Assembly (NCBI GenBank): GCA_044892525.1
Contig: CM097888.1
Span: forward strand, 64,232,001 to 64,296,000
DNA: 64,000 nucleotides
Reading direction: 5' to 3'
Source of the DNA: Schmidtea polychroa
Lineage: Eukaryota
The notes beneath the pieces are model-generated. The model saw only the letters and a list, made by a program, of their open reading frames with translations. It did no database searches and was not told the origin of the DNA. Position 1 is the stretch's first letter; each line of letters begins with the position of its first letter. Positions 50,901-55,150 of this stretch are shown piece by piece. Position numbers and translations under genes: made by a program.

Positions 50901-52555
50901 CTGACTAGGCCTGATCCTCGAGTGTCATGAGGACAATTACCAGTATATAATACACGGCCAGGTGATTCCCTGATTTCATTAATTTTGTTCCTAAGAATTT
51001 TGCAGGTAGGAAGATAACTTTCATTACCACTTAGTGTCGTTGGATTTAACAGATAGTGCTCATCAGTTTGGTAATCAATGATAAACAAGATTTCCCTTGA
51101 TTTTTCTGGTGCTACGATAGTAAATATGACTTGTGCCTTGATCAACGATTCACAATCTAAAAATTCATTTAAATATCCAGTGCAATCGTCAAGAATTGCA
51201 GTGCACATTGTAGCATTTAAAAACATGAATTTTGTGGGTAAGTTTAATTTATGAATGTATTTTGATGTGATTTCATCATTAATTTTACAGTTAATTAAGT
51301 TTAAATTCCTGGAGATCTCGTTTGTTTGTTGTATTTTATAAGATTTAAGGGACTCGGTGATACTTGTGCGACAAACCTGATTGTCAAAAAGTAGTTTTTC
51401 AACCAATTCAATGACAGCAGAAGCAAATATATCTGGGTCAACAGATGTGATGGAAATGTGGTCGATGTTGTGGAGACTATTGAAGTTGATCTTCGATTGA
51501 GAAAGGAAAAATTTATTCATATAGTCTGTCATGTTTTCTCCTATGCCGATTAGTCTCTCAGTTAGAATTCTGTTGTTAAAGTTGAAAATGTAACTGATTC
51601 CTAAAACGAAAGAGAAAAGATACAGACTCAAATTCGTGTCATCTGGAATGACGCTGATGACATGTTCTATTCCAGCAAATTGTTTAAACGTGACATTTTC
51701 TCTAATGAATATATCGTTTTGTGCAATAATATTCAATGTCAGTTCAGAAGAAAGAACAGTAATATTACTTCTATCTTTATACCATTCACTAATCAAGTAT
51801 GTGACACATGAGTTCTGTTTCTGGAGATATATCAGGTTACCATTCCTCACCTTCTTAACTCCATTCCGTTTGATTGTCTCCATGAATTTTGGAAGGCCAC
51901 CCCCCGAAGTTTTGGGATCTTTTTGTTGTTGAGTAAGTTTAAACTGGTGGACCTCTTTCCTGATAGTCTCGATGAAGCAGCCCGACAAGTTCTGCCATTC
52001 TCCACAAATCATCATGGCATATGCGCAGATGTATGGCCCACAATCGTAGCTATTGTTTTGATATAAAAGGTTGTTATGAGGATGAAAAGTCATGGCTGCT
52101 TTTAGGTCAAACAATTCATTCAAAGCCATTGTGATTTTAAGAGCAATTGTTTTATTTGTAAAACTATGCCGATTTAGAAGGATTGGATCGATGAAGTAAG
52201 AAATTAGAGAAGATTTGCAATAAACGAACAAGATCCAATGAGATTTGTTGATGTTAAGGGGGCATAGTATTACTTGTGCTTTCAAGACTCTTTCCGAAAT
52301 TGGGAAAGTGTCATTCTCGAGGTTAGAGCACAAAATCTCAACGATAAAACATTTGATAGACGCAAATTCTGGGTTCATGATGTGATTTTCGAGAAAATTA
52401 TCAATATCATCATCAGTGAACCAGATCTTTGGGTCGCGTTTTACCATCAAATTTTTATTATTATTAATGATGTTGTGATGTTTATTAGTATTTTTTGTGC
52501 TGTCTGCATCAGTCTCCTTAGAGATTGGGGCAGATGTTGAGACTGATGCAGGCAC
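47951..52555 (-). CDS. ORF2 copy 2: Ulp1/C48-like cysteine protease, reverse transcriptase, CCHC zinc knuckle, restriction-like endonuclease
   Basis: Protease: KSHWIL/FIDP/QNNSYDCG. RT: SPGIDGI, WRPIALLSVIYK, QKGG, DIKDAFGSV, GVKQGCPIS, AYADD, YRYLG. Knuckle: CRRCQTEEETMSHVLQSC (Cx2Cx8Hx4C). RLE: RHD...RVDL...LIDMKCP...GALGS. The track start is a GTG; the first in-frame ATG is at 52447. Confidence 0.97.
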   Translation of the reverse strand: MPASVSTSAPISKETDADSTKNTNKHHNIINNNKNLMVKRDPKIWFTDDDIDNFLENHIMNPEFASIKCFIVEILCSNLENDTFPISERVLKAQVILCPLNINKSHWILFVYCKSSLISYFIDPILLNRHSFTNKTIALKITMALNELFDLKAAMTFHPHNNLLYQNNSYDCGPYICAYAMMICGEWQNLSGCFIETIRKEVHQFKLTQQQKDPKTSGGGLPKFMETIKRNGVKKVRNGNLIYLQKQNSCVTYLISEWYKDRSNITVLSSELTLNIIAQNDIFIRENVTFKQFAGIEHVISVIPDDTNLSLYLFSFVLGISYIFNFNNRILTERLIGIGENMTDYMNKFFLSQSKINFNSLHNIDHISITSVDPDIFASAVIELVEKLLFDNQVCRTSITESLKSYKIQQTNEISRNLNLINCKINDEITSKYIHKLNLPTKFMFLNATMCTAILDDCTGYLNEFLDCESLIKAQVIFTIVAPEKSREILFIIDYQTDEHYLLNPTTLSGNESYLPTCKILRNKINEIRESPGRVLYTGNCPHDTRGSGLVSKILICAFIQNYAKDLPLTNLNLREIGNVVSSFVPIVNDFNRKKTIRPTKSNKNKEGNANLEMRKLKVLELLRRVTDFSVNEIIDVILEQFPDKLKSTHKPYLGNKKKLTSKTDKGKLISKFMTDMKSTVNKIFNNINTTVMPNFQTIVMNFMHKTPLEKSWDKIFEFCKRSQRKLCLISLTCDEVLFEMKKADNTSPGIDGIQYRDLLSLDPEGKLLTFLYNKIILNKAIPDSWKTFKTLLTPKPDKDGKYDDVSSWRPIALLSVIYKVFASCLASRLTSWINSNDLLHIGQKGGSQHDGCVEHNSILSAALEHSKYSVNKPLAIAWLDIKDAFGSVPHEYMWYLLRFIGVSEEFASIIQMLYFNTSTFYSCGNILTPNIPIKQGVKQGCPISMILFALAINPVLEAVSRSDCRPFRIGKSPIKILAYADDIALVTKSVEELQKITDIAVATAAEIGFKYRPEKCAYLQLPNVDIDSEISIDGIKIKKLQSNEFYRYLGVPVGEETDQNPYDILDKVVSDTKKLADSELLGWQKLKAYKIFVHSRLIFPFRTREIKTSALSRPSADSNRSVNITSQVRTCLRKMLLLPNNSVVSYFYNSTENGGANCVDLLDEYHTQTITHFFRLLTSKCDFAKKINTDSLSFVTGPRLGIKDPTLQESLDWLNGKQSKPHHSGKKTRFQRVRTAIAFFEKNHKISISFIVTKQETSLYITTAMRGTCILTSDLRQTTSKVLHMALCDAYLLKGESSHNSNFIAAAIRLSPKINIAIFRGALSEFAWNFIHRARTNSLSVNAKPYNKDGQRLCRRCQTEEETMSHVLQSCKVHLTLGSERHDDCMKLITNRLMKNPNLIVVVDHICSLVPNSKERVDLMITDLLKRKIFLIDMKCPLDSVKSFQLVDSANLIKYESLKKEIQAVKPDFKVELDTCIIGALGSFPSSTPEILLKIGVKRSEINSLLKECAISNITHSARRWYYHKTGTLADLD
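52497..52555 (-). promoter_or_regulatory. Stem-loop 3' of the ORF1 UGA (candidate readthrough stimulator); also at 44016-44074 and 60551-60609
   Basis: mRNA sense: UGA AGGUGC GUGC CUGCAUCAGUCUC [22-nt loop] GAGACUGAUGCAG ACA GCAC. This is a perfect 13-bp stem plus a 4-bp extension. The function is inferred. Confidence 0.75.

Positions 52556-55150: not shown

Follow-up and report, generated by a model that had tools for sequence, protein, structure and literature searches.

A 64,000-nt stretch of the Schmidtea polychroa genome (assembly GCA_044892525.1, contig CM097888.1, positions 64,232,001 to 64,296,000; hereafter the window) carries, on its minus strand, three copies of a ~7.7-kb non-LTR retrotransposon (one without long terminal repeats) with pairwise identities of 99.4-99.7%. 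Both open reading frames (ORFs) in this element share one frame and are separated by a single UGA followed by a 59-nt hairpin. Judging from sequence comparison, we consider with a probability of about 75% that UGA and hairpin form a programmed stop-codon readthrough signal. This interpretation, put forward in an earlier note on the same DNA, is supported by the comparisons described below. Both the type of element and readthrough are known, and their combination was not found in literature searches. All features of the element and of its target array given below by window position lie on the minus strand, and statements on published systems refer to the portions of the cited sources covered here.

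In copy 2, ORF1 (862 aa, 52565-55150) ends at an in-frame UGA (52562-52564; context AAA UGA AGG UGC GUG), followed by a 6-nt spacer of two sense codons, Arg-Cys in the window element (52556-52561), and by the hairpin (52497-52555). The hairpin consists of a perfect 13-bp stem (52551-52539 paired with 52516-52504) capped by a 22-nt loop, and a 4-bp GUGC/GCAC helix (52555-52552 with 52500-52497) extends it across a 3-nt 3' bulge. The same junction is found in copy 1 (UGA 44083-44081, hairpin 44074-44016) and in copy 3 (UGA 60618-60616, hairpin 60609-60551), as the earlier note had described. The three copies are weak replicates because of their near identity and because copies 1 and 2 have a common 5' junction. 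Re-counting confirmed that 55150 to 47951 is 2400 codons with one internal stop, and the stem, its loop and its GUGC extension were recovered where the earlier note had placed them. One detail needs correction: ORF2 (1536 codons, 47951-52561) had been said to start 6 nt after the stop, but its frame opens directly after the UGA and it is the GUG and the hairpin that begin 6 nt downstream.

The predicted fold has a free energy of -29.6 kcal/mol and a z score of -5.57, with 0 of 200 shuffled sequences equally stable. It is the most stable of 2553 segments of 66 nt in the 7.7-kb element, and its 13-bp stem is the longest perfect one, the next reaching 10 bp. No known Rfam family matches the hairpin (best E 0.28). 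Readthrough signals are expected to have one conserved stop, in frame with long coding regions on both sides, and a stable structure about 8-12 nt behind it; here, the core stem follows such a stop after 10 nt and the lower helix after 6 nt. Counting the first base of the stop as +1, these positions are +14 and +10, and known stimulators start at +12 to +16 (PMC13517186).

The junction is conserved in eight families of this genome (A to G and a family with a 1555-aa ORF2, together group I), in each of which a UGA is followed by two sense codons and then the GUGC stem. These families are diverged: over the first 700 codons, ORF2 identity is 34-66% among seven of them, apart from the pair C-E (97%). 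UGA and motif directly precede ORF2 in 46 of 48 loci in one set, the exceptions being a copy 5'-truncated inside the loop (L027) and one with a frameshift just downstream (L028), and in 21 of 21 loci in a second set (8 of which also belong to the first). A genome-wide search with a pattern that left the stop codon free gave 532 matches, 531 with TGA, one with CGA and none with TAA or TAG; the pattern demands AGR after the stop and therefore misses the 1555-aa family, which has AAA. Nine group I sequences give hairpin z scores between -2.5 and -4.9, and the 1555-aa family gives -4.3. The earlier note had named relatives with ORF1 and ORF2 out of frame and no hairpin as an observation that would speak against readthrough; on the contrary, the related families are in frame and keep both the UGA and the hairpin.

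The single CGA match (L172, G000:C1:197142282) is one decayed copy of a ninth family that has kept the hairpin. It may reflect a later mutation, and it resembles the opal/Arg variation of alphaviruses. The L027-type truncated copies (G000:C185:47510 and 55621) begin inside the hairpin loop and are joined to tRNA. The stem may be a place where reverse transcription stalls. A nonsense mutation in a dead lineage was ruled out by the 531 of 532 TGA matches together with conservation across saturated families. A variant code in which UGA means Trp was also ruled out, as ORF2 contains 14 TGG and 0 TGA codons and several families end ORF2 with TGA.

As far as comparison of sequences can tell, the UGA-hairpin signal is under selection. 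Between families, third bases of four-fold degenerate codons agree at only 0.31-0.56 (0.98 for C-E), so that silent sites are near saturation. In a background of five lineages, invariance is seen at 12 of 183 four-fold columns, never with G, and no Lys, Glu or Gln column out of 71 keeps G in all five lineages. Against this background, the G of the UGA is the same in 7 of 7 families, as are five third bases of four-fold codons in the stem. This is constraint at the nucleotide level on the stop and the stem. The GCAC strand is also kept across a switch between Ser-AGC and Cys-UGC codons. Pairing was further followed in a set of homologues from other datasets, comprising the 14 closest protein matches and P0020; 11 of these proteins open with this motif. 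Because bases paired between the two arms occupy first and second codon positions, the encoded residues report on pairing. Watson-Crick pairs are allowed at 67 of 88 positions in the 11 homologues, compared with 54.2 in 20,000 permutations (p 0.00025, kinship ignored). Coordinated swaps are seen from Ser/Asp to Pro/Gly (P0009, P0011-P0013 and P0020), from Val/Thr to Asp/Ser or Thr/Val, and from Ser/Glu to Cys/Gln. Read back from protein residues, these swaps imply compensatory changes in the stem of the 11 homologues.

A start of ORF2 at its own AUG finds little room in these families. The first in-frame AUG of the window element is at codon 39 (52445-52447), where the earlier note had located it. 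It is not conserved in subfamilies or other families, Met39 being absent from two subfamilies of A, and the DNA thus speaks against a general ORF2 start at 52447, which the earlier note had listed as a possible refutation of readthrough; we rejected it for that reason. In the eight families, the first in-frame Met codon is at position 39 (A), 37, 317, 152, 317, 51, 81 and 180, with the catalytic His at codons 92-108. In four of the eight (codons 317, 152, 317 and 180), the first AUG thus follows the catalytic His and an AUG start would lose the protease. The distance between stop and protease varies by whole codons only, indicating that the stretch between them is translated in frame. Stop-start coupling of the SART1 type, in which an AUG overlapping the stop opens ORF2, was not found either. 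An AUG does overlap the UGA (AUGA, 52565), but in the five families tested it opens a -1 frame of 15-16 codons that ends in the hairpin loop, and two families have GUGA instead; an AUGA stop-start was ruled out on both grounds.

Related lineages without this hairpin also have their ORFs separated by an in-frame UGA, at other positions. In group II, UGA CUA or UGA CUC stands exactly at an aromatic residue of the Ulp1 protease motif in 13 of 13 junctions (4 of 4 loci, and 9 of 9 junctions in a second set, several with a broken ORF1); relatives have Phe, Tyr or Leu at this position. In group III, UGA CUC comes after the protease, which lies in ORF1, in 4 of 4 cases. Group III falls inside the hairpin clade in a quick tree of the reverse transcriptase (RT) domain (Shimodaira-Hasegawa-like approximate likelihood ratio support 99), so the UGA site has likely moved. 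A metagenome contig (L062) encodes 734 codons, UGA CAA, then 1148 codons. Groups II and III and L062 mostly lack downstream structure, with z above -1.1 in 6 of 7; L160 reaches -3.05 over 70 nt, not over 150. If independence is assumed, the chance that all four UGA positions are in frame is about 1 in 81. Two distant homologues, P0019 (2039 aa) and P0029 (2421 aa), consist of a single ORF each, in which the protease is preceded by about 900-1100 residues.

Several observations stand beside these comparisons. In L153 (G000:C1:270722300-270731800), an in-frame deletion of ~150 codons takes out the stop, the hairpin and the protease start; loss of the junction leaves one frame of 2273 codons. In a decayed family (L166:4050-4100), UGA CGG stands in frame upstream of zinc fingers, together with a short hairpin (z -2.45 over 50 nt); this is possibly a fifth readthrough position. 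Two related metagenome elements (L063:275-277 and L064:495-497) have a common in-frame TGA (UGA UGG) 173 codons before the RT match, with no significant structure at this TGA. An apparent remnant of the hairpin motif inside group III ORF1 was rejected, as it aligns with another ORF1 motif. Searches of G000 with P0029 and P0015 yielded no new outgroup family, L062 was the sole intact close relative among 80 loci of a metagenome scan, and a viral scan gave no relatives. A genome scan gave four distant ones, as judged by 26-32% identity.

In the mechanism that we propose, most ribosomes would stop at the UGA and release the ORF1 protein, and a minority would decode it to make a ~2399-aa ORF1-protease-RT-endonuclease polyprotein. 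With its start 10 nt behind the stop, the 13-bp core stem would lie at the mRNA entry channel of the ribosome and slow termination, thereby making up for the weak UGA-A context. The residue inserted at the UGA would be Trp, Arg or Cys, the amino acids that UGA readthrough inserts. Ulp1 proteases cut after Gly-Gly. In the element, a Gly-Gly-Gly lies just 3' of the protease (51896-51904), and 12 of 14 aligned homologues have Gly-Gly behind the protease, so that self-cleavage there may release the RT-endonuclease. In sister lineages, a leaky UGA-C context would lead to this outcome without a hairpin. Taken further, a flatworm branch of non-LTR elements with a restriction-like endonuclease (RLE) would follow a gag-pro-pol logic, in which a single leaky UGA has changed its place three times or more (to lie before, within or behind the Ulp1 protease), driven by the UGA-C context or, in the LIN25-like lineage, by the bulged hairpin, and in which the protease frees the RT-endonuclease. 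We regard this wider scheme as somewhat probable. The "retrovirus-like gag" of the earlier note is best kept as a mere analogy, ORF1 being without Pfam or fold match.

Several points weigh against readthrough. UGA-A is a weak readthrough context. The gag-UGA-pol junction of the Candida albicans retrotransposon Tca2 gave, on its own, no readthrough in yeast (PMC2194720), so junctions of this kind can fail in reporters. Two rDNA-inserted sister copies, L162 (4453-4545) and L163, show an out-of-frame AUGA overlap. No group I ORF1 homologue fused to ORF2 was found in searches that returned 0 matches, or 32 matches of up to 960 aa. Within this genome, none of 17 pairs in 10 junction sequences shows a double, compensatory change; the core is invariant, and pairing loosens at the outer positions. 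The covariation that the earlier note had suggested looking for is thus absent from this genome and is indicated by the protein homologues alone. Finally, the in-frame GUG 6 nt after the stop (at +7) is invariant across families. As to L162 and L163, they carry a weak hairpin behind the overlap, look internally deleted and have a late frameshift.

This GUG, which lies inside the hairpin and was not weighed in the earlier note, is the basis of the main rival, termination followed by hairpin-aided reinitiation at the GUG (or by an AUG-independent route), which would give a separate ORF2 protein starting with Val/Met-Pro-Ala-Ser. We consider it unlikely. It draws on the presence of the GUG in all families, no ATG, CTG or TTG variant occurring among pattern searches of the genome, and on gene callers beginning 11 homologues at this codon, although the leading M of these proteins is probably just the gene caller's reading of a GTG shortly after a stop. 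Reviews describe a SART1 coupling that requires downstream structure and an L1 that reinitiates across a spacer (PMC3894237, PMC5972666). The surroundings of the GUG are nevertheless unfavourable: in the five families tested (5/5), position -3 is a pyrimidine and position +4 is C, and the GUG is paired in the stem. Non-AUG starts require a strong context. Conservation of GUGC is explained by its pairing with GCAC, and Val-His occurs in P0008. Moreover, reinitiation requires neither UGA over UAA nor a common frame, both of which hold at four positions, and the UGA-C lineages have no GUG.

An ORF2 made from a shorter RNA, through an internal promoter, cis-splicing or trans-splicing by which a spliced leader supplies the AUG, with the hairpin serving RNA processing or ribonucleoprotein binding, appears highly improbable. 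Tca2 does have a minor promoter at its junction (PMC2194720). The bases next to the UGA are AG in 7 of 8 families, and flatworm spliced leaders may end in AUG. However, an AUG spliced onto this AG would open the -1 frame, which runs for no more than about 16 codons before a stop; AA replaces AG in the 1555-aa family, no pyrimidine tract is seen, no AUG is conserved before the protease, and the in-frame UGA would be left unexplained. Slightly harder still to credit is adenosine-to-inosine editing of UGA to UGI, read as Trp, in a fraction of the RNAs. It would explain why UGA alone is conserved as the stop, Trp would fit the group II position, and planarians have adenosine deaminases acting on RNA; on the other hand, the UGA lies outside the predicted duplex, and groups II and III mostly lack nearby structure. 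Among the alignments inspected from four sets of contigs, one of which may be RNA, neither a GT-AG joint nor a change at the UGA was seen, a result that bears on neither splicing nor editing. The least credible explanation is that UGA encodes selenocysteine and that the hairpin is a selenocysteine redefinition element. A stem that begins about 6 nt behind a UGA does resemble the arrangement in SEPN1. Yet no Rfam match to a selenocysteine insertion sequence was found in the 3' untranslated region (UTR) of copy 3 (E up to 10) or in the window (gathering score), the site lies in a linker, and group II relatives have Phe, Tyr or Leu rather than Cys at the UGA.

Programmed readthrough, the reading that we prefer, invites comparison with known systems. 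The alphavirus and coltivirus signals (Firth 2011, PMC3159437; PMC13517186) likewise combine an in-frame UGA upstream of the polymerase with a 3' stem-loop and frozen silent sites. The alphavirus context is UGA-CUA (PMC13517186). This type II context, a UGA followed by CUA or CGG, is absent from the window element (UGA AGG) and occurs in its sister groups, which carry UGA CUA; the element further differs by its UGA-A context, its compact 59-nt hairpin and its nuclear retrotransposon host. In Drosophila kelch, a 14-bp stem is predicted after an 8-nt spacer in a UGA-A context (PMC3159437), close to the UGA-A and 13-14-bp stem after a short spacer considered here, but kelch is a cellular gene. 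Moloney murine leukaemia virus, with its gag-UAG-pol arrangement, also has a structural ORF, a stop and protease-RT in one frame, and its signal encodes the N-terminal region of the protease. By contrast, the planarian element has UGA instead of UAG, a hairpin rather than a shown pseudoknot, a cysteine protease, an ORF1 that is not a recognisable Gag and no LTR. The gammaretrovirus-type pair of UAG and H-type pseudoknot was not found, the stop being UGA, and no pseudoknot search was made.

Among retrotransposons, Tca2 has a lone UGA between its two ORFs and a predicted 3' structure but is an LTR element (PMC2194720). SART1, with its UAAUG coupling, and L1, with reinitiation, are non-LTR elements, and SART1 depends on structure downstream of the ORF1 stop (PMC3894237, PMC5972666); here, no AUG stands in the ORF2 frame at the stop, the AUG of AUGA being in the -1 frame. 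Readthrough in a non-LTR element was found neither in literature searches nor in the text of PMC5009743 covered here; Repbase and the primary papers on R5, NeSL-1 and SART1, which may already note the stop, were outside this scope. By what route the scarce ORF2 protein of non-LTR elements is produced is an open question (PMC3894237), for which reviews list reinitiation, stop-start coupling, 2A peptides and possibly internal ribosome entry sites (PMC3894237, PMC5972666). If true, readthrough would add a route to the ORF2 protein, with retrovirus-like control of stoichiometry arising in a site-specific long interspersed nuclear element (LINE). The wider gag-pro-pol scheme, if it holds, would amount to the first description of programmed readthrough for LINE-type elements and define a new compact family of readthrough RNAs. 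The 59-nt hairpin is a small and directly testable signal that would act in a weak UGA-A context. Elements with this UGA would be intact, and should be annotated neither as broken nor as starting at a downstream AUG.

The ORF1 protein (862-868 codons in the three copies) has a conserved helical core, with 26-59% identity among eight rows, and a basic C-terminal tail. It gave no Pfam match, and Foldseek searches of PDB and BFVD at E 0.001 found nothing; its structure model has a predicted local distance difference test score of 63 and a predicted template modelling score of 0.29. ORF2 contains a Ulp1 (C48) cysteine protease domain (52007-52423; Peptidase_C48 above cut-off) with His108, Asp125 and Cys174, the His being kept in 14 of 14 aligned rows. 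It is followed by an RVT_1 reverse transcriptase (49397-50170), whose best solved relatives are R2 proteins, and by a CCHC zinc knuckle (zf-RVT) with an RVD...IDMK motif (48248-48493), read by eye, which we take to be that of the restriction-like endonuclease. The order RT, CCHC knuckle and restriction-like endonuclease, with no apurinic/apyrimidinic endonuclease (APE), is that of the RLE group, the endonuclease motif being assigned by eye. A Ulp1-like protease upstream of the RT has been described for NeSL and Utopia-1_TSP. Cross-matches in ORF2 at 51900-50700 seemingly reveal two further degenerate Ulp1-like repeats between the active protease and the RT.

By its sequence features, the element is a LIN25_SM-like, tRNA-targeting RLE non-LTR retrotransposon of the NeSL/R5 group, hence a member of a known group; the label derives from the 3' end, the tRNA junction and the domains, the RT tree having contained no named LIN or R5 protein. 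As in the planarian LIN25_SM and LIN15_SM, which are related to NeSL/R5 (Kojima & Jurka 2015, PMC4640811), the 3' terminal ~40 nt are near-identical, the 3' junction comes after nt 4 of the tRNA gene and tRNA arrays are targeted; the 3' ends were compared by eye with S6 Fig of that paper. The portion of PMC4640811 covered here says nothing on the ORF structure of LIN25_SM or on readthrough. The target differs, being tRNA-His here. Related group I families use many tRNA arrays and 5S rRNA, two of them (L053 and L171) being found in 5S rRNA arrays rather than tRNA arrays.

In the window, the target is a tandem array of tRNA-His(GUG) genes with a 427-bp unit (36286-38952), further units lying at 46670-47426, 55151-55480 and 63239-64000. 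Copy 3 (55481-63238) is full length, with a 31-nt 5' UTR and its ATG at 63207, and has on either side a 39-bp repeat (63277-63239 and 55480-55442) that duplicates nt 5-43 of tRNA-His. Copy 1 (38953-46669) has a 4-bp deletion close to the ORF2 end. The 3' UTR of copy 2 spans 47427-47950 and ends in ~40 nt that are similar to the 3' end of LIN25_SM. Copies 1 and 2 have no 5' UTR: both begin at the ORF1 ATG (46669 and 55150), joined to spacer ~110 bp upstream of the tRNA. Their 5' junctions are identical, which indicates duplication of the array. The left half of the window contains weak Pfam matches at 844-1953, 23572-24060, 24992-25462, 28652-29188 and 33852-34367 (AP5Z1-like, hAT dimerisation, tubulin, DUF4371 and POP1-like).

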